Of a DNA stretch of 38,194 nucleotides, positions 30,954 through 38,194 are shown one piece after another; the stretch's first letter is position 1, and each line of letters starts with the position of its first letter. The stretch comes from a virus, in UHGV virus genome UHGV-0004901; one strand, given 5' to 3'. A program made the translations under genes and the position numbers. The notes under the pieces were generated by a model. It was given only the letters and a program-made list of their open reading frames with translations, had not been told where the DNA came from and ran no database searches.

Positions 30954-31325
30954 ATGAACAGAATTATATTAATGATTATTCTTATGCTTTTAGTTGTAAA
31001 ATCTTTTGCAGATACTACCTCACCGTTAATGATTCAGCCTAAAAATGGGGAAACACTGGAGGATTCTAAAAAGCATACAATGGAATATTTTGGATGTATA
31101 AAAGGGCAGGTCGTAAAATACGCTAAGACAGGAGAAAGTGTTGATTCTATATCCAAAGCTTCGGTTGTGTCATGCGAGTCGTACATACAAAAGATTGCTG
31201 AATCAAATATATACTATTTAAATTCCTCTCAAGACGGTAAGCGGAAATTTATTGGAAGGCTTAAATCAGATGGTGAAAATTTAGCAACGAAATTTGCTAT
31301 GGATGAAAAGCTAAAAAATAAATAG
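30954..31325 (+). CDS. Secreted/periplasmic protein with signal peptide (moron, about 33% GC)
   Basis: N-terminal MNRIILMIILMLLVVKSFA signal peptide; two Cys in the mature part; very AT-rich compared with about 52% GC for the flanking virion genes. Confidence 0.55.
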   Translation: MNRIILMIILMLLVVKSFADTTSPLMIQPKNGETLEDSKKHTMEYFGCIKGQVVKYAKTGESVDSISKASVVSCESYIQKIAESNIYYLNSSQDGKRKFIGRLKSDGENLATKFAMDEKLKNK

Positions 31326-31333
31326 GTGACTAC

Positions 31334-31630
31334 ATGCAAGCGATAGGATTCATTGTTTATATCGTCGTTGGTCTTTTTCAGTTGGCAGCAATTATGGCTG
31401 GGCTTGAATCATGGTGGGGATTGCACTGGATAATTGCAGCCCCCATTGCTTTCATCGTGAGCTATATTCCATTTGTTGGAGCGATTGTTGGTATGGTTGG
31501 CGCTGTGGATGTATGGCGGTGGGAGTGGTGGCAGGCTGGCCTTCTCTTCTTTGGTGGGATCATCTTTGCTATTGTCTGCGGTGGAATGTCATCATTTTTC
31601 GAATGGCTATCATTCAGAAAAGGAACGTGA
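31334..31630 (+). CDS. Small integral membrane protein (3-4 predicted TM segments); candidate holin or exclusion protein
   Basis: 98 aa, hydrophobic throughout, Trp-rich loops; stop codon embedded in a GTGACATGTCAC palindrome. Confidence 0.5.
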   Translation: MQAIGFIVYIVVGLFQLAAIMAGLESWWGLHWIIAAPIAFIVSYIPFVGAIVGMVGAVDVWRWEWWQAGLLFFGGIIFAIVCGGMSSFFEWLSFRKGT

Positions 31631-31638
31631 CATGTCAC
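31627..31638. repeat. 12-bp perfect palindrome GTGACATGTCAC (copy 3 of 3)
   Basis: Direct reading; overlaps the TGA stop of the 31334..31630 gene in the same register as copy 1. Confidence 0.8.
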
Positions 31639-31663
31639 AGGCCGCTTTCGCGGCCTTGTTTTT
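31639..31663 (+). terminator. Rho-independent terminator ending the late/moron transcript
   Basis: AGGCCGC-TTTC-GCGGCCT hairpin followed by TGTTTTT. Confidence 0.7.
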
Positions 31664-31823
31664 AACGAATGCCACCGCCGCCCGGGCGGGAATCCGCAGA
31701 ACGCCCACCGCAGCGGGAGCCGTCAGCGGCAGTATCGCTGTCGTGCTGACAACGACCGGCAAAGGCCTGAGTTGAAGCTACCAGAGACAACAAAACGAAC
31801 AGTGCAGCAAATGCTTTTTTCAT
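31662..31823 (-). CDS. Small protein with Sec-type signal peptide (53 aa), speculative
   Basis: MKKAFAALFVLLSLVASTQAFA then a 31-aa Gly/Arg/Cys-containing tail; possible promoter TTGACG-16-TATAGA upstream; weak SD. Confidence 0.3.
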   Translation of the reverse strand: MKKAFAALFVLLSLVASTQAFAGRCQHDSDTAADGSRCGGRSADSRPGGGGIR

Positions 31824-31894
31824 TGTGACATTTCCATCTATAAGCCACCTCAATGTGGCGTCAATGAGTGTAGCACTGACTTTTGTTTCGTCCA

Positions 31895-31917
31895 CAAAAA
31901 AGCCCTCGCCGCGGGCT
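31895..31917 (-). terminator. Rho-independent terminator after the 31917..32456 gene
   Basis: Minus-strand AGCCC-GCGGCGA-GGGCT hairpin followed by a T6 run. Confidence 0.6.
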
Positions 31918-32456
31918 TACCAAAACTTGTACCACGGGGATTTATCCTTCAATGGACAATCCTTCCATCGTGTGGCTAACCATTCATATTCTTTAAAATA
32001 TGTGTTTATGTTTTCTTTTTCTCTAATAGCTTGTATAAGAGGTAGCGCAATCTGATAGTTATTTACAACGGAGCTGTAAAATACTTCCTTAATCATGGTC
32101 TCATCATAAGTTTTCCGCTTCACGCTCACAGCCATGCGTTCGTAGAAACCTAGACAGTAAATTATTTCTCTCTTCTCTATCTTTTCTTCATCCGTAAGAT
32201 CAGCCTGCCCATTGCTTGGATACATATAAGAGCGGAATGATTTGTTCGACTCGTGAATGCGGCGCATAGTAGATAGGCCTTTCTTATAATCTACATCAAA
32301 CCTGCTTTCACCAAGGAATACTGAAGTGTGTACTTTTCTCGCTGTATTTACATTATAAATAATAGTAGCGATAGCTATGAACAAGCCAAGCGAAACCGCG
32401 ACTGCACTTACGATTTGAGCCACAGCCATGGCAAATTGCATTTCTTCACTTAACAC
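31917..32456 (-). CDS. Membrane-anchored protein of unknown function (single N-terminal TM, about 36% GC); candidate superinfection-exclusion/defence protein
   Basis: GTG start with SD GGAG; TM segment AMAVAQIVSAVAVSLGLFIAIATII; AT-rich; occupies the position held by sieA in P22-type genomes. Confidence 0.55.
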   Translation of the reverse strand: MLSEEMQFAMAVAQIVSAVAVSLGLFIAIATIIYNVNTARKVHTSVFLGESRFDVDYKKGLSTMRRIHESNKSFRSYMYPSNGQADLTDEEKIEKREIIYCLGFYERMAVSVKRKTYDETMIKEVFYSSVVNNYQIALPLIQAIREKENINTYFKEYEWLATRWKDCPLKDKSPWYKFW

Positions 32457-32474
32457 AAACTGTCTCCAGACATG

Positions 32475-32496
32475 AAAACGGGGCCTAATGGCCCCG
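32475..32496 (-). terminator. Hairpin/terminator between the antirepressor gene and the 31917..32456 gene
   Basis: Minus-strand ACGGGGCC-ATTA-GGCCCCGT hairpin followed by TTTT. Confidence 0.5.
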
Positions 32497-32585
32497 TCAT
32501 TAAACTATCCGAATGTTAAACGCCTTCGTACTCGTCAAATTTTCTCATGTGGGCTCCTCCTGTATCGGTGCCTAATCGCTATGGA

Positions 32586-32600
32586 TCACCCGTAAGGTAA
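32586..32600. promoter_or_regulatory. Operator-like palindrome TCACCCGTAAGGTAA
   Basis: Direct reading. Confidence 0.45.
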
Positions 32601-32672
32601 TAGTACTCTATTCACCACCCTGTCTGCAATCGTACAGAATTATTTAAAAGCACATCCATGTGCCACCGCCCG

Positions 32673-33383
32673 TCAGAAGAACCCTGCCTTGTCGTTGATG
32701 TATTCCGCGTGCGTCTGGATATCACGCAGGCATTTGCTCACACCGACGATGTAGCAGAACATGGTGGTCAGCTCCGCCGCCGCGCCCGATACGTCGTGCC
32801 CGTCTTCCTGTAACTGGTTCAGCAGATTCATCAGCAGTGAGTTCTCCGTCAGGCCGAGAACACCAGACGGCGAGTGAATCAGGCTGCGGTAGCCGGGCTT
32901 CAGCGGGGCGCTGTAGGTTTTGTTCTCTATCTTCATTGCCTGCATCACTGCTGATGCTGTGGCGTTTGCAACCTGGTCGGCAACCATCTTTATGCGTTCT
33001 TCCTGCGGGAGCGAGTTTTTAATGTAACTTCCGGTGCGGCGGATCTGAGGAAGAACCTCACCTGTAACCCATTTACGAAAGCGGTAGGGGATAGTGCCTG
33101 GTGTCACTGCGTCGCGGCAGCGGAGGATCAGTGTGTAGAGGCCTGACTCGGAGATGATGTTGATCTCTTTTACTCGGCTGTCAAAAATTGCACGATGTTC
33201 ATGCCCTATGTTGAACATAGACCTTTCATCATCATCCAGTTTTTCAAGTGCTTGGGTGACGTTTTGGATACGCAGCGCACTACAAACGTCTTGGGCTACA
33301 AACCATGGTTGGCCATCGATAATGATGGAACGGATAGGGTTAACAGATTCAAATTTGAAGATGGCAGTTTGAGCATTAGCCAT
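32673..33383 (-). CDS. ant: Antirepressor with Bro-N/KilA-N-type N-terminal domain
   Basis: ...FESVNPIRSIIIDGQPWFVAQDVCSALRIQN...GLYTLILRCRDA... matches Bro-N; start at ATG 33383 with SD GGAG. Confidence 0.8.
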   Translation of the reverse strand: MANAQTAIFKFESVNPIRSIIIDGQPWFVAQDVCSALRIQNVTQALEKLDDDERSMFNIGHEHRAIFDSRVKEINIISESGLYTLILRCRDAVTPGTIPYRFRKWVTGEVLPQIRRTGSYIKNSLPQEERIKMVADQVANATASAVMQAMKIENKTYSAPLKPGYRSLIHSPSGVLGLTENSLLMNLLNQLQEDGHDVSGAAAELTTMFCYIVGVSKCLRDIQTHAEYINDKAGFF

Positions 33384-33652
33384 GGTGGTTATCTCCACTT
33401 AGTGATTTTAATCACCACCGCAACGCCAATTACTGGTGGTGAACTGGACAAGGTTGGCGTACCGGCCTAAGTGGTACCGGCGTCCTTTCGGACCCCTGCC
33501 CAGCCCACCATAATTCGGATATAGCTGTGCTTAACGCATAAAAAAACCACGTCTGGCGTGGTATGCGCCACTTAGTAACTCGGGACGCCAATCCCGGCAC
33601 TGGATTTTGCCAGTACCCGATTACTATGGCACAAGAGGAGTGCGATGTAAAT

Positions 33653-33760
33653 TTACCGCAAAGGTAATGATAAACGCGAAGAAATATTAAAATCAACCGT
33701 ATTTGGTTGGTTGCGTTTAACGCTTGATCACCTGAAAGCAAGATATTACCTTTAAGGTAA
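33653..33760. promoter_or_regulatory. Two operator palindromes in the divergent ant / 33781 promoter region: TTACCGCAAAGGTAA (33653..33667) and TTACCTTTAAGGTAA (33746..33760)
   Basis: Direct reading. Confidence 0.55.
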
Positions 33761-33780
33761 TGTTATTGTGAGGAAAAGCA

Positions 33781-34509
33781 ATGGAAGTTTTCTGGATAGT
33801 TGTTGGTGTGGTTGCGGTGATTATTTATGTTATCAACCAGAACAAGACTAAGATCTCTGATCGTACGGTCGTTAATCATAACAAAACGATAAAGACCGAA
33901 GATGGGGAGATAACGATTAATCGTACACAGGTGATAGAACACACCTCTACTCAGTTTCAAAAAACTGGAGGTAATGCGCCTAATATTTCCGCACCTCCTG
34001 CTTATGATAGTGCGGTAATCCAGACATATTATAAACAGCAGGAGTTAGCAAAAGAGAGGCAACTGATTCAGCCAAAGCCGTTTACAGCTGAGCTTCCACC
34101 TGGAGTGTCAACGCGTCCGGCATATCATGGAAGATTCCCTGGTGATGACATATCGTCTCAGTCATCTAAAAAAGCACCTCAGGCAGTATCAGAGCCAGCA
34201 AGAATACCTTCTGTATCGCCGCCAAAAGAAGAATCAGCTAACAGAGTTTCAAGTGGTAGCAAGCAGTGCTTGCGATGCAGAATAAACCTACCATATGAAA
34301 AATTCAGGAAATCGTCAAAAAATCCAGATGGATTGACTAAGTGGTGTGCAAGGTGTCTCGATGGCCCAAAGAATACACGCCATATGAAGTGGTGCCCAAT
34401 TTGTAATGTCCGCAGAAAACGAACCAGCTTTTACCCTAATAATCAAAATGCGGACGGATTAATGGCATGGTGCAAAACGTGCTGGGATGAGCACAAAGCG
34501 AAACGATAG
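33781..34509 (+). CDS. Membrane-anchored protein with two tandem CxxC...DGLxxWCxxC zinc-ribbon-like repeats (unknown function)
   Basis: N-terminal TM MEVFWIVVGVVAVIIYVI; C-terminal repeats CLRCRINLPYEKFRKSSKNPDGLTKWCARC and CPICNVRRKRTSFYPNNQNADGLMAWCKTC. Confidence 0.6.
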   Translation: MEVFWIVVGVVAVIIYVINQNKTKISDRTVVNHNKTIKTEDGEITINRTQVIEHTSTQFQKTGGNAPNISAPPAYDSAVIQTYYKQQELAKERQLIQPKPFTAELPPGVSTRPAYHGRFPGDDISSQSSKKAPQAVSEPARIPSVSPPKEESANRVSSGSKQCLRCRINLPYEKFRKSSKNPDGLTKWCARCLDGPKNTRHMKWCPICNVRRKRTSFYPNNQNADGLMAWCKTCWDEHKAKR

Positions 34510-34533
34510 GCCGCTCTTGCGGCCTTTAAATTT
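34509..34533. terminator. Hairpin/terminator between convergent genes
   Basis: GGCCGC-TCTT-GCGGCC followed by TTTAAATTT. Confidence 0.5.
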
Positions 34534-34789
34534 ACCGGGTTTGTTTTCGTAATTGTTCGGCACAATAGTCGAGATGTGTTTGCAGATCCCGCATAGACAT
34601 CTGTGACCTGGTGACGTAGTTAATCAGTGCAGTCAGTTCGGCAAGTGGGCCATCGACATTAAATCCATCCTTATCGAGATCCCGGAGTAATTTCATCAAG
34701 TGCGATCCCTCCACCAGTGATCTGACGCCTCCCGGCGTGTGAATCCTTTCGGTAAATCCGTCTTCCAGTGGATAGTGATACTGCTGCAT
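34532..34789 (-). CDS. Antirepressor C-terminal-domain paralog (85 aa, stand-alone)
   Basis: ...GGVRSLVEGSHLMKLLRDLDKDGFNVDGPLAELTALINYV...RDLQTH... aligns by eye with the Ant C-terminus ...SGVLGLTENSLLMNLLNQLQEDGHDVSGAAAELTTMFCYI...RDIQTH...; strong SD GGAGAAG before ATG 34789. Confidence 0.5.
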   Translation of the reverse strand: MQQYHYPLEDGFTERIHTPGGVRSLVEGSHLMKLLRDLDKDGFNVDGPLAELTALINYVTRSQMSMRDLQTHLDYCAEQLRKQTR

Positions 34790-34865
34790 CTTATCTTCTC
34801 CATACGATAACTGTATATTTATACAGTAACAAATAATTTGTTTGCTATCCAGCACGTTTTGCAAA

Positions 34866-34880
34866 TCACCTGAAAGGTAA
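34866..34880. promoter_or_regulatory. Operator-like palindrome TCACCTGAAAGGTAA between the Ant-C paralog and the tail fibre gene; followed by CATATGTGGTT-N5-GGTAATA (34910..34932)
   Basis: Direct reading. Confidence 0.5.
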
Positions 34881-34984
34881 TATCTGTTCGTATTTATGGG
34901 TTGTCTATCCATATGTGGTTTTTTAGGTAATAGAATGACCAGATATGCGGCGCAACGGGTGCTGCGACTATCTGGAGATTTAAC

Positions 34985-37900
34985 ATGACGGTCTCAACCG
35001 AAGTTGACCACAACGAATACACCGGTAACGGAGTTACGACATCATTTCCGTATACCTTCCGTATTTTCAAAAAATCCGACCTGGTTGTTCAGGTGTCTGA
35101 TCTGAACGGGAACGTAACAGAATTGGTGCTTGATACCGGTTATAAGGTAACTGGAGCGGGCACTTATAGTGGCGGTGAAGTGGTTCTTCCGTCGCCGCTT
35201 GCTGCTGGCTGGCGAATTACGATAGAGCGTGTGCTTGATGTGGTGCAGGAGACTGATCTTCGCAATCAGGGAAAATTTTTCCCCGAAGTTCATGAGGATG
35301 CATTCGACTACCTGACGATGCTGATCCAGCGATGTTTTGGGTGGTTCAGACGTGCATTGATGAAGCCCTCGCTGCTTGCAAAATATTACGATGCAAAGCA
35401 AAACAAAATTTCTAACCTTGCAGATCCATCACTTGAGCAGGACGCTGTAAATAATCGTTCAATGCGTAAGTATGTGGATGCTGCAATTGCTGGTGTTGTC
35501 GGTGGTTTCGGATGGTTTATCCAGTATGGTGCTGGAGCTGTATACAGAACGTTCCAGGATAAGATGCGTGATACAGTAAGTGTGAAAGATTATGCTGCTG
35601 TTGGAGATGGTATAACTGATGATACGAATTCTTTTATTCTGGCTCCTGAAAATGCTTATGTTCCACCTGGAGTATATCTTGTTGATACGTTGAAAGTAGA
35701 TGTAAGCAAAATGACAGGGGAAGGGATGATTCTTTCCAAAACTGGTCATCTACTTTCTCTTCGTAATAATATCAGTAATACATTGGTGCAACGCCATTTA
35801 ATGGAAGCATTTATGGGTTTTGGTGAGTCCCAAGTTTTTCCAAATGGTGAGGCTACAAGTCAAGGGTGTGCTTATGCGAATTATAATGGTAAAAAATTAT
35901 TTATTTTACAAACGGTTGTTGGCAGTGCTGAAGGTAGTGGAAACTTCAACTCTAAAGTAACATCAGCTGGTGACTTCATAACCGGAATTGAATATGAAAT
36001 AGTAAGTATAGGTTCAACTGATTTTACAACTATAGGGGCTGCTGAAAATAATATTGGTGTACGATTTACGGCGAATGGTCCAGGGGTTGGTACAGGAACA
36101 GCAGCTGCTTTAGAGAAGCGCAGGCTGGTTGAATACTCGTTTTCTGATGATGGTTCAGTAGTGCAAAATACTACTTACACTGCACCAATATTAAATAACC
36201 ATCAGGGAATATCTACGATAGTTATTGATGATGACCTTTTTATTTATACCCAAATGGTTACCCAGCCTACATATCGAGGAAATGATGGAGGAAAAGGTTA
36301 TTCAAAATTAATTTGGAAAGGGAGCAGCACATCTGAATCTGATGTGATTACTTATCAGCTTTTTGGATATTCTGGTTCTGGTCATCCTTATCAGAATTAT
36401 AATTCAGCAACCCCGTGTGTATCTTCAGATGGAAGGTATGTTGTTCTTGTTGCAACTGATAGCACAGCAGATGATGATGCCTGGTATGTATTTGTTTACA
36501 GCAGGATACACGTAGAATCCCTTGACAATAGTTTGGAAGCAAGACCATTGTATTATTTCAGGATTCCACATCCGCAGCGCGGAACTGATACTCATGTTAT
36601 TCAAGATGTTGCCAGTGATGGTAAGTACATCTATATATTAAGGGGATATACACATCCGTTCATGTTGCATATTATTCAGAAGTTTGATTATTCTGGTAAT
36701 ATTCTTGCTGAATTTTCATTTGAGGGGGCTCGTTCTCTTTATGGATACAAAAATCTTATGGATAATCCAAAGTATGGGACCCCCCATTCATTTGAACCTG
36801 AAGGTATAGACATGTATGAAGGAGACCTTATTATTCTAACTATGGATAATTGGGATTCTGGAGCTTCTATTATAACTTACAAAGGAAAGAATTATTCCGC
36901 TTTTTCTACTGCTTCTGGTATTGCTCCGGATGATCCCGATGGATTTAGAATGTGGGCGATAACAAATAAAGTTAGTGGTGGGGAATACTCGAATGATAAA
37001 AAGTACAGCGATGGAGTGTATTCGAAACGAGGAAAACAGATATTTCTTATTTCACAATCGCGTGGGGTTGCTAATGAACTCCCATTGAATTCCGCCTTGA
37101 CAACTCGTGTTAATAACTCACCACTTTCTTCTATAAGTTCTGCTTTTGATGTTTCCTTTAAATTAGGAGAGAACTGGATATTGGGGGGGTATTCAGAAAA
37201 TACTTCAGAATATAAAAAAGCCATTCAGTATGCTAGTAATGGTGCTTTTCGTGTTCATGATTCCCGCAGAGAATCTGACAATAATAAGTACTGGTCTATA
37301 CGTGGTGGATATGATGTAACACCGCAGATACAAGAAGTTGTTGAATTTAGGTGTCGTGGTACTGTAGAAAATGGGGCTGGCTGGAATGCTTATGGTTCTA
37401 ATGACTATCGCTTACCAAACAGGTTTCGTATGTTCCCTGGCGGGAGCTTTGGCGGTACTCAAGTTCTTGTCGAGATAGCTAATCCAGTTAATGATAATCC
37501 TTATTTTGCTCCCACAGGGCAGATAGGAACAGTTAATAATGGTACAACGACAGCATACTGGAATAACATATATAGCAAGAATGCTGTCACTGTTGTTTCA
37601 GATGTTAATTACAAAGATGAATTCTCGGATATACCGACTGAACTTATTGAAGCCGTGGGTAGTGTAAAATTTCAAATGTGGAAGATGAAGGATGAAATAT
37701 TACGAAAAGGAAGTGAACATGCCAGATATCATTTTGGAGTTGTAGCGCAGCAAGTTAAGGATGCAATTACAAAAGCTGGTCTTGATTGGAAGAAGTATGG
37801 TCTTATTACGTATGAAGAAACCAGTGTTTTGGTAAGAGAAAACGAATCTGGTGATTTTTATCCTATTGATATTGAGTCTTGTCCAATTCCAGTTAATGAA

Positions 37901-38059
37901 TTTGGGATTATTAAATTAATAGAAGGTGCAGATGAAATTAAAGAAGATAAACATGGAAATTTGGTATTGACAAGATCTATTTACATGATGCGTATGGATG
38001 AATTTGAAATAATAAGGATGGCATATCAAGAAAAGAAAATAGCGGATCTAATAAGTTAA
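34985..38059 (+). CDS. Tail fibre/tailspike protein: T7 gp17-like N-terminal virion-attachment domain, AT-rich distal receptor-binding region, C-terminal chaperone-like segment
   Basis: N-terminus ...TGNGVTTSFPYTFRIFKKSDLVVQV...RITIERVLDVVQETDLRNQGKFFP resembles the T7 tail fibre N-terminal domain; GC drops from about 50% to about 36% after roughly 35.6 kb; C-terminal ...SDVNYKDEF...YHFGVVAQQVKD... resembles intramolecular chaperone (S74-like) domains. Confidence 0.8.
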   Translation: MTVSTEVDHNEYTGNGVTTSFPYTFRIFKKSDLVVQVSDLNGNVTELVLDTGYKVTGAGTYSGGEVVLPSPLAAGWRITIERVLDVVQETDLRNQGKFFPEVHEDAFDYLTMLIQRCFGWFRRALMKPSLLAKYYDAKQNKISNLADPSLEQDAVNNRSMRKYVDAAIAGVVGGFGWFIQYGAGAVYRTFQDKMRDTVSVKDYAAVGDGITDDTNSFILAPENAYVPPGVYLVDTLKVDVSKMTGEGMILSKTGHLLSLRNNISNTLVQRHLMEAFMGFGESQVFPNGEATSQGCAYANYNGKKLFILQTVVGSAEGSGNFNSKVTSAGDFITGIEYEIVSIGSTDFTTIGAAENNIGVRFTANGPGVGTGTAAALEKRRLVEYSFSDDGSVVQNTTYTAPILNNHQGISTIVIDDDLFIYTQMVTQPTYRGNDGGKGYSKLIWKGSSTSESDVITYQLFGYSGSGHPYQNYNSATPCVSSDGRYVVLVATDSTADDDAWYVFVYSRIHVESLDNSLEARPLYYFRIPHPQRGTDTHVIQDVASDGKYIYILRGYTHPFMLHIIQKFDYSGNILAEFSFEGARSLYGYKNLMDNPKYGTPHSFEPEGIDMYEGDLIILTMDNWDSGASIITYKGKNYSAFSTASGIAPDDPDGFRMWAITNKVSGGEYSNDKKYSDGVYSKRGKQIFLISQSRGVANELPLNSALTTRVNNSPLSSISSAFDVSFKLGENWILGGYSENTSEYKKAIQYASNGAFRVHDSRRESDNNKYWSIRGGYDVTPQIQEVVEFRCRGTVENGAGWNAYGSNDYRLPNRFRMFPGGSFGGTQVLVEIANPVNDNPYFAPTGQIGTVNNGTTTAYWNNIYSKNAVTVVSDVNYKDEFSDIPTELIEAVGSVKFQMWKMKDEILRKGSEHARYHFGVVAQQVKDAITKAGLDWKKYGLITYEETSVLVRENESGDFYPIDIESCPIPVNEFGIIKLIEGADEIKEDKHGNLVLTRSIYMMRMDEFEIIRMAYQEKKIADLIS

Positions 38060-38078
38060 TGCTATAATAAATAATATG

Positions 38079-38115
38079 TAATGGCCGCGCATTACGGCCA
38101 TTATTATAATTATAT
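38079..38115 (+). terminator. Rho-independent terminator after the tail fibre gene
   Basis: TAATGGCCG-CGCATTA-CGGCCATTA hairpin followed by a T/A-rich run. Confidence 0.6.
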
Positions 38116-38117
38116 CA

Positions 38118-38194
38118 CTGTGCTGCTGTGCTGCTGTGCTGCTGTGCTGCTGTGCTGCTGTGCTGCTGTGCTGCTGTGCTGCTGTGCTGCTGTG
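38118..38194. repeat. Tandem octanucleotide repeat (CTGTGCTG)n, at least 9.6 copies, truncated by the window end
   Basis: Direct reading; perfect 8-bp periodicity to the last base of the window. Confidence 0.9.

Follow-up and report, generated by a model that had tools for sequence, protein, structure and literature searches.

Mosaic structure of the tail spike gene of an epsilon15-like Escherichia coli prophage

Introduction

Exchange of cassettes between tail spikes is textbook knowledge. Here, we describe the tail spike gene that occupies positions 34985 to 38059 of the virus genome UHGV-0004901 (38,194 nucleotides; this whole stretch is called the window below). PHROG tail spike and tail fiber families match its product, which is the tail spike of an epsilon15-like (Uetakevirus-type) prophage of Escherichia coli. 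An original prediction, made from the sequence alone, had read it as a chimera of a conserved T7-type attachment domain and a horizontally exchanged, AT-rich distal module. The closest described systems are gp20 of Salmonella phage epsilon15 (E15) and the spikes of Uetakevirus phages of E. coli. They come from genomes of the same type, have a homologous N-terminal domain, and are encoded at the same position, between the immunity/antirepressor region and the lysis genes. The body of E15 gp20 consists of a trimeric beta-helix endorhamnosidase, a beta-sandwich, and an esterase “petal,” and the text of the preprint makes no mention of a chaperone (bioRxiv 10.64898/2026.07.31.742079). Unlike E15 gp20, the spike of the window is modeled as a five-bladed beta-propeller followed by a tower, and it ends in an S74 chaperone.

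Each part of the spike has its own set of relatives. The N-terminal anchor has the same fold as those of T7 gp17 (PF03906), Carin1 (8ck1), PhiM1 (8vbx), Kp7/Kp9, P-SCSP1u, and HRP29, and both T7 gp17 and the spike anchor contain the motif ...N(K/R)I.NLA.P....DAV.... The body resembles the receptor-binding proteins (RBPs) of the staphylococcal phages phi11 (Gp45, 5efv), 80alpha (6v8i), and NF5 (9m7x) and the fiber of P68 (6iab), with 10 to 14% identity and without detectable sequence homology. In P68 and phi11, the five-bladed propeller forms a platform that holds the receptor site (for the GlcNAc of teichoic acid) and is followed by a “tower” (PMC6795507). Because the host here is Gram-negative, the ligand cannot be wall teichoic acid, unlike that of the staphylococcal phage RBPs. 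Compared with these RBPs, the spike has three additional elements, a 50-amino-acid (aa) inserted domain, a GDG neck motif, and the C-terminal S74 chaperone; to our knowledge, none of them has been described for the phi11, 80alpha, NF5, or P68 proteins.

The S74 domain, with its SDxxxK motif and a GVIAQ(Q/E)V helix, is common to the spike, K1F endoNF, phi92, T5 pb1, phi29 gp12, Acinetobacter phage AS12 gp42 (6eu4), and phage E1004 (9vvr). A Ser nucleophile and a Lys residue five positions further on (S-D-x-x-x-K) define this family (MEROPS S74, endoNF). In its general plan, with an anchor, a body that contains a propeller, a stalk, and a chaperone to be released, the spike also resembles endoNF. 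The propeller of the endosialidase has six blades (GH58) and specificity for polysialic acid, whereas that of the spike is modeled with five. Foldseek scores of the spike against endoNF range from 3e-8 to 7e-7 and come without aligned ranges, so that the contribution of the propeller is not separable from that of the chaperone and stalk. Proteins of the E. coli phages vB_EcoP-683R2, Gally, and PGN829.1 and the gp12 neck appendage of Bacillus phage GA1 are 25 to 32% identical to the spike over 83 to 91% of aa 198 to 871; judged by sequence, they belong to the same propeller family but are too distant to share specificity.

Results

Homology and base composition change at two sharp junctions

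Comparison with the sister prophage EC0026B delimits the exchanged segment on both sides. The 225 bases upstream of the spike gene (34760 to 34984, including a 195-nucleotide [nt] intergenic region) agree at 224 of 225 positions, and identity continues without interruption through the first 586 nt of the gene (586/586, up to 35570). The first mismatch falls at 35572, and beyond 35620 identity is 39%. Homology returns at 38027, in the last 33 nt of the spike gene, and extends onward with 84 of 91 positions identical. In EC0026B, the counterpart of 38027 to 38117 is noncoding and lies downstream of that prophage's own spike stop codon; this stretch is the scar of the 3' crossover. Both junctions are placed to within a few bases, and the recombination point that comparison with related prophages had been expected to reveal is found at about 35571 on the left, with its partner at about 38027 on the right (Table 1). 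The cassette swap is recent, and the conserved attachment domain was kept. The hinge at the left junction contains a motif (QDKMRD..VSVKD..GDG) that also opens the homologous module of P22-type spikes, and the presence of the junction motif GAVYRTFQDKMRDTVSVKDYAAVGDG in both E15-type and P22-type spikes explains its service as a recombination site.

The distribution of the two parts of the gene differs accordingly among E. coli genomes. In a megablast search of 5426 complete genomes, 493 match the spike gene over nt 1 to about 630 to 670 only, whereas 5 match the whole gene, at 99.9% identity or more. Cluster P0001 gathers 90 member sequences with this cassette. Matches to isolated Uetakevirus phages are limited to nt 1 to about 640, where ZX5, phiv142-3, EC.W1-9, and HEMP4 show 90 to 95% DNA identity; an E15 isolate shows 74% over nt 1 to 346. 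The N-terminal ~200 aa are homologous to the phage-binding domain of epsilon15-type tailspikes, and the flanking genes are the same. Proteins that share this N terminus are annotated as endosialidase propeller, SGNH hydrolase, GH28-related, or S74, and such varied annotations behind a common N terminus indicate that one anchor bears many bodies; at least 15 different tail families account for the PHROG matches to aa 1 to 165. The closest relatives of the body (P0002 to P0008) are 39 to 47% identical from aa ~186 on and have a P22-type head-binding or a short N terminus, and in metagenomic contigs their genes follow P22 gp7-type ejection-protein genes.

Base composition shifts at the left junction as well. 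The GC content drops from about 35576, which bears out the predicted fall at about 35.6 kb: it is 47.2% in the part encoding aa 1 to 185 (GC at third codon positions [GC3], 44%) and 37.5% in that encoding aa 186 to 1024 (GC3, 25%). The seven large virion genes of the window have 50 to 58% GC (GC3, 51 to 61%), and, across the window, 900-nt intervals with less than 41% GC occur only in the distal spike gene. The distal region had also been called rich in Ser, Gly, Asn, and Tyr. The enrichment is real but mild (G, 9.3%; S, 8.7%; N, 6.2%; and Y, 6.1% in aa 186 to 1024, against 9.2, 5.4, 4.9, and 4.9% in aa 1 to 185), and the region is not of low complexity, since it is modeled as confident globular domains. 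Uniform composition and uniform homology along the gene are clearly not what we find, so the chimera stands: with homology that is nonuniform on both sides, the spike joins an attachment domain to a horizontally exchanged, AT-rich receptor module.

The body is modeled as a five-bladed propeller

An AlphaFold 2 (AF2) model of the spike body, built with 41 aligned relatives, has a predicted local distance difference test (pLDDT) score of 86.9. In Foldseek searches, the body matches the 80alpha, NF5, P68, and phi11 RBPs at about 1e-9, and its five-bladed propeller and subsequent tower are superposable on the phi11 and P68 RBPs; the alignment with the phi11 RBP spans 337 residues, which exceeds a propeller alone. 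Aa 641 to 871 are, on the model, a probable tower or stalk, the last ~55 aa of which have low monomer confidence, as expected of a trimeric stalk. A beta-helix depolymerase had been considered because of a weak Pect-lyase match at aa 198 to 235, but the model and the fold searches give a propeller and no beta-helix, and a right-handed beta-helix depolymerase body was not found. Judged by the model, the middle of the gene encodes a propeller receptor-binding module rather than a compositionally odd linker.

The propeller family is large. The center of the body had seemed nearly unique in a word-indexed search (9 matches), a view overturned by an exhaustive search in which 1723 representatives fall below an E value of 1e-3 and 111 below 1e-30. 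A beta domain of ~50 aa (...GIEYEIVSIGSTDFTTIGAAENNIGVRFTANGPGVGTGTA) is inserted in the propeller. In an exhaustive search of the protein library, this unit, with a consensus of roughly G.F..G..YEI.S.GTTDFT.IGA..N.VG..FTATG.G.GTG.A, is present in 4 to 12 tandem copies per protein in many large proteins of up to 7522 aa. Among the relatives of the body, P0004, P0006, and P0008 have a second copy and P0009 has none. No Pfam or PHROG family matched the unit, which may be an undescribed widespread domain.

Anchor and chaperone

The anchor is conserved in 180+ protein clusters and matches the N terminus of the Carin1/Dpo31/36 tail fibers (28lx/8ck1) with E values of 1e-32 by phmmer and 7e-40 by profile search. 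Its AF2 model has pLDDT scores of 85 to 92 for aa 11 to 80. The best 23 Protein Data Bank (PDB) matches by Foldseek are all N-terminal anchors of podovirus fibers or spikes from tail reconstructions, with a probability of 1.00. The Carin1 anchor (8ck1_B) scores 2.7e-12, with 47% identity, and T7 gp17 scores 7.4e-5 (7ey9_a) and 2.0e-4 (7boz_a), with a TMt of 0.56 for 7ey7_a. The anchor thus has the fold of the gp17 N terminus in a model that is confident only over the beta-sandwich (aa ~6 to 86).

The C-terminal segment had been likened to auto-cleaving intramolecular chaperone domains on account of two peptides, which lie at aa 872 to 880 (SDVNYKDEF) and 915 to 926 (YHFGVVAQQVKD), and the likeness is well founded. 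PF13884 is matched above the Pfam cutoff (35.8 bits versus 22; E value, 9.6e-9; aa 872 to 933). Sequence searches with phmmer against the PDB find the C termini of the spikes 6eu4 (2e-22) and 9vvr (1e-13), the phi29 gp12 chaperone 3gud (8e-12), and the endoNF chaperone 3gw6 (2e-5). The model, with pLDDT scores of 86 to 96 for aa ~875 to 1024, has the fold of solved S74 chaperones (Foldseek: 3gud, TMt 0.78 to 0.79, E value 2e-6; 3gw6, 3e-8; 4uw8, 9e-7). Residues S872-D-V-N-Y-K877 fit the SDxxxK motif; S872, D873, and K877 are invariant in 9 homologues, and in the alignment with the crystal of the released phi29 gp12 chaperone (3gud), Ser872 falls on its residue 1. Autocleavage is predicted to take place before Ser872 (codon 37598 to 37600), with Lys877 as the partner.

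The spike gene in lysogens and the downstream repeat

The 3075-nt open reading frame (ORF) of the spike is intact not only in the window but also, at 99.9% identity, in four further complete genomes, which come from Mali, Gambia, and Japan. E. coli SW070919, the sole record with 100% identity to the window, matches its last 7.2 kb completely, save for an IS3-family element inserted after position 35578 (35578/35579; L007 3595-4907), 7 nt downstream of the left junction; the insertion splits the spike gene, parting the anchor from the receptor cassette, and inactivates it. Of the lysogens with the same spike, MLI121 and MLI114 are O15, and E100341 and AST205 are O7. An attempt to read the receptor from the lysogen serotype therefore yielded no single O type (O15 twice and O7 twice); the O cluster of SW070919 was not found at the one guessed position. 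The presence of the spike in at least two O types agrees with a receptor untied to one O antigen or with a cassette that was exchanged after integration.

Downstream of the spike gene, a GC-rich hairpin (38079 to 38103) lies between convergent genes, and the window ends in a perfect 8-nt tandem repeat (38118 to 38194; CTGTGCTG), with 9.6 copies within the window. This repeat forms the 3' portion of a convergent gene for a hexapeptide-repeat acyltransferase (L007 7377-8627, L001 9126-10250) and encodes (STAAQQHS)n, all three frames yielding the same cyclic peptide. Its copy number varies by strain, giving products of 416 and 374 aa, and the array is much shorter in EC0026B. The acyltransferase gene may serve seroconversion and vary in phase or length, and the end of the sequence at 38194 is probably due to the repeat.

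Upstream region and prophage setting

The virion operon ends near 31630 and is followed by a terminator-like hairpin (31639 to 31656). The 3.3 kb between this operon and the spike contain opposite-strand genes and a second terminator-like hairpin (34508 to 34525), which makes a promoter of its own a reasonable inference for the spike gene. The claim of an operator-bearing promoter apart from the virion operon holds for the transcriptional separation and is not supported as regards the operator. A standard sigma-70 scan found no plus-strand site between 34004 and 35743, and the best site of a relaxed scan agrees at 8 of 12 positions; if its TAGAAT element is used, transcription of the spike gene would start near 34943. 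The operator that was meant is probably a LexA (SOS) box, AACTGTATATTTATACAGTA, which contains the inverted repeat CTGTATATTTATACAG. The box is conserved in relatives and lies between the -35 (TTGTTA) and -10 (TATCGT) elements of a promoter-like site that points leftward, at a distance of 22 nt from the start codon (ATG) of a divergent 85-aa gene; by position, it belongs to that gene.

The 85-aa product resembles the Bro-N antirepressor encoded at 32673 to 33398 on the minus strand, with 43% identity to the last 74 aa of the latter (BLASTP E value, 3e-16), and the PHROG matches of the 85-aa product are phrog_450 and the anti-repressor phrog_1760. The ORF list had extended this gene to 34912, masking the 195-nt intergenic region. 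The arrangement of LexA box and 85-aa gene is kept in related prophages and phage ZX5 and looks like a LexA-controlled small antirepressor-type induction switch. Upstream of the Bro-N gene, within 33432 to 33629 on the minus strand, Rfam models for the C4 antisense RNA (66 bits) and isrK (63.5 bits) score above threshold and c4-a1b1, the C4 target element, just below it (43.4 bits). The region before the spike is suggestive of a P1/P7 immI-like, antisense-controlled antirepressor region, and P22 immI occupies the corresponding position before its spike gene.

An RNA hairpin just before the spike start codon folds with -23 kcal/mol (z, -3.0), a value reached by 0 of 200 shuffled sequences, and is invariant in four relatives that are only 92 to 94% identical nearby; it may modulate translation or mRNA stability. 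Within the spike gene and directly before it, an Rfam search of 31000 to 38194 gave nothing above chance.

As a whole, the window represents a nearly complete prophage of an epsilon15-like temperate podovirus, with the spike as its last gene. It encodes a tyrosine integrase (193 to 1443), a T7-type portal (PF12236), an E15 GP7-family capsid protein, a 201-aa adaptor-like protein (matching a “tail tubular protein” PHROG), an 823-aa nozzle-like protein, internal virion proteins, and regulatory genes, a set that looks complete and comprises a T7-like tail. Three minus-strand ORFs inside the spike gene (35042 to 35401, 35459 to 35749, and 36892 to 37224) are treated as chance ORFs. Directly after the virion operon terminator, a moron-like gene on the minus strand (31917 to 32456) encodes a DUF4760 protein (E value, 1.6e-30). 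Between the antirepressor region and the spike, a plus-strand gene found in some relatives only (33781 to 34509) encodes a 242-aa phrog_6762 protein, the C-terminal Cys-rich repeats of which match endonuclease VII, HNH, and Lar-like zinc-finger PHROGs and, weakly, Pfam Stc1.

Table 1. Features of the spike locus in the window
Feature	Position	Strand	Remarks
Tail spike (tail fiber) gene	34985..38059	+	Intact ORF, 1024 aa; ATG start; GGAG 6 nt upstream of ATG
Virion-attachment (anchor) domain, aa 1-165	34985..35479	+	Beta-sandwich aa ~6-86, then helices
Hinge and shared junction motif, aa 166-212 (...GAVYRTFQDKMRDTVSVKDYAAVGDG)	35480..35620	+	Left recombination junction ~35571; GC drop here
Exchanged receptor-binding cassette	35571..38026	+	37.5% GC; junctions from EC0026B; in 5/5426 E. 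coli genomes
Five-bladed beta-propeller “platform” (modeled), approx. aa 263-640	35771..36904	+	Bounds estimated from secondary structure and family conservation
Inserted beta domain of ~50 aa, aa 325-375 (...GIEYEIVSIGSTDFTTIGAAENNIGVRFTANGPGVGTGTA)	35957..36109	+	Within propeller
Putative tower/stalk, approx. aa 641-871, up to predicted cleavage site	36905..37597	+	Secondary structure, pLDDT
Peptidase_S74 intramolecular chaperone, aa 872-1024	37598..38059	+	Pfam PF13884, phmmer, Foldseek
Right junction and shared backbone	38027..38117	+	Last 33 nt of gene, stop codon, GC-rich hairpin
Rfam elements upstream of Bro-N gene	33432-33515, 33540-33616, 33577-33629	-	
Divergent 85-aa antirepressor-like gene	34532..34789	-	258-nt coding sequence annotated in all relatives
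LexA (SOS) box AACTGTATATTTATACAGTA	34809..34828		18/20 to consensus; inverted repeat CTGTATATTTATACAG at 34811-34826
Best weak sigma-70-like site, TCCATA-17-TAGAAT	34908..34936	+	8/12; relaxed scan; below standard-scan threshold
RNA hairpin just before start codon	34939..34976	+	3' arm overlaps first bases of GGAG ribosome-binding site

Discussion

The module boundaries, the composition shift, the homologies, and the folds all point the same way, and we consider it highly probable that the gene encodes a mosaic spike of an epsilon15-like prophage, composed of an anchor, a swapped propeller cassette, and an S74 chaperone. How such a spike would dock, trimerize, cleave itself, and bind glycan, and in which direction the cassette moved, is drawn from the folds and from what is known of T7, P68/phi11, and endoNF/phi29. 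By this analogy, the anchor (aa 1 to ~165), constant within the phage group, would fix the spike to the tail adaptor/nozzle, while the cassette (aa ~196 to 871), made up of the neck, the propeller platform with its inserted domain, and the tower or stalk, would recognize a cell-surface glycan. Three chains would trimerize under the guidance of the S74 chaperone (aa 872 to 1024), which would fold the stalk and then cut itself off before Ser872 by means of a Ser-Lys dyad, leaving a mature subunit of ~95 kDa. The cassette would have arrived by homologous recombination, with crossovers in the hinge motif on the left and within the final ~30 nt of the gene on the right. The swap would have replaced the host-recognition specificity and left the rest of the virion untouched.

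Several observations weigh against parts of this reading. (i) A low-GC donor of the cassette was sought and none was identified: the closest relatives lie in P22-like metagenomic contigs of 54 to 56% GC, and their spikes have 51 to 54% GC. Moreover, the direction of the exchange relative to EC0026B is one that we infer. (ii) The link of the propeller to phi11 and P68 is one of modeled fold. PF21311 (Phage_RBD_prop) misses its threshold (17.5 bits versus 23.7, at aa 519 to 611), and a profile of the 41 body relatives searched against the PDB finds no propeller RBP by sequence. (iii) The same applies to the anchor and T7 gp17, for which a relationship at the sequence level had to be given up. 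The anchor fails the PF03906 threshold (15.6 bits versus a cutoff of 25.2) and matches over aa 135 to 161 only; BLASTP against T7 gp17 aligns aa 134 to 155 only (E value, 0.015); hhalign aligns aa 12 to 166 colinearly with T7 residues 11 to 156 at a probability of 5.7%; T7 gp17 is missing among the matches of the PDB profile search; and confidence in the anchor model is low over its helical part. The label “T7-type” is therefore apt for the fold, as found by Foldseek, and for the role, and it is not apt as a statement of family membership: the anchor is closely related to the Carin1/Dpo31/36 type, and its likeness to T7 gp17 is either remote kinship or structural analogy. (iv) Identical spikes in O7 and O15 lysogens mean that the receptor is not readable from the O type of the host. 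(v) Across the family of 41 relatives, which are 25 to 45% identical, H406, H467, Q540, E604, E606, and D759 are invariant and K437, D482, and R583 nearly so, E604 and E606 being part of an FEPEG motif; these polar residues could reflect catalysis rather than mere binding.

The last point leads to the alternative that survives best, namely, that the distal module is an enzyme, a depolymerase or a glycan-modifying propeller spike comparable to endosialidase or to the GH43, GH32, and GH130 propellers. Cleavage of the O antigen or capsule would let a short-tailed phage reach the outer membrane. This alternative, which contests only the binding-only part of our reading, is a real possibility, although we would give it somewhat less than an even chance. 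Epsilon15-type phages classically have enzymatic spikes (bioRxiv 10.64898/2026.07.31.742079), and so many invariant or near-invariant polar residues (H406, K437, H467, D482, Q540, R583, and E604/E606) over 41 diverged relatives are unusual. Beta-propellers also count as a depolymerase fold class in Klebsiella prophages, the role of this fold class in Gram-negative phages being described as unclear (PMC12491483). However, the closest structural relatives, the RBPs of phi11, 80alpha, P68, and NF5, are described as binders, and Pfam detects no glycoside hydrolase or lyase family in the spike.

A further alternative is that the prophage is defective and its spike gene a decaying remnant without a functional product, as the IS3 element that splits the gene in SW070919 might suggest. 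We think this improbable, given that the window and four further complete genomes have the ORF intact, that the genes for integrase, portal, capsid, tail, internal proteins, and regulation form a complete-looking set, and that the catalytic Ser/Lys motif and the family-invariant residues are all kept. Finally, the gene could have evolved in place, its low distal GC content reflecting an amino-acid or functional constraint of Asn/Tyr/Ile/Lys-rich beta proteins, but, although S, N, Y, and I are somewhat more frequent in the distal part than in the anchor and the distal spike of the relative 20AR0300 is also low in GC (37.1%), this has hardly any probability left, because the shift is greatest at synonymous third codon positions and hence not explained by amino acid usage, homologous modules of the same protein family have 51 to 54% GC elsewhere and so the fold does not demand low GC, identity to the sister prophage drops over a few bases from 100% to the background level and is regained 2.45 kb further on, the whole gene is matched by 5 E. 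coli genomes against 493 with the N-terminal match, and four independent complete genomes with an intact gene argue against an assembly artifact at the break.

Within the reading of a mosaic spike with a swapped cassette, the propeller could be an uncharacterized receptor module of enterobacterial podophages, either a new enzyme with a conserved His/Glu/Asp center or a lectin-like protein that binds a surface structure common to several O serogroups. We regard this as conceivable but unlikely. The 99.9% identical spikes in O7 and O15 lysogens fit it, as does the strong conservation of the propeller core in >100 diverged relatives, and, if true, such a module would give an epsilon15-like phage a host range untied to one O antigen.

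Each module of the spike belongs to a known kind, and the exchange is a clear but ordinary example that leaves the current understanding of how such spikes work unchanged. New are the precise junctions, the 3' scar, and the combination of an E15-type anchor, a phi11/P68-type propeller, and an S74 chaperone in E. coli, which, on the evidence of the modeled fold, places this kind of propeller receptor module in E. coli prophages. For the retargeting of epsilon15-like phages, the spike offers a portable cassette (aa ~196 to 1024) and an anchor (aa 1 to 195) that could be combined anew. Temperate podoviruses change hosts mainly by swapping modules of their tail spikes, and this locus shows it very clearly: a sister prophage agrees with it base for base as far as codon 196, and the 3' crossover has left a remnant, so that both crossovers are pinned.

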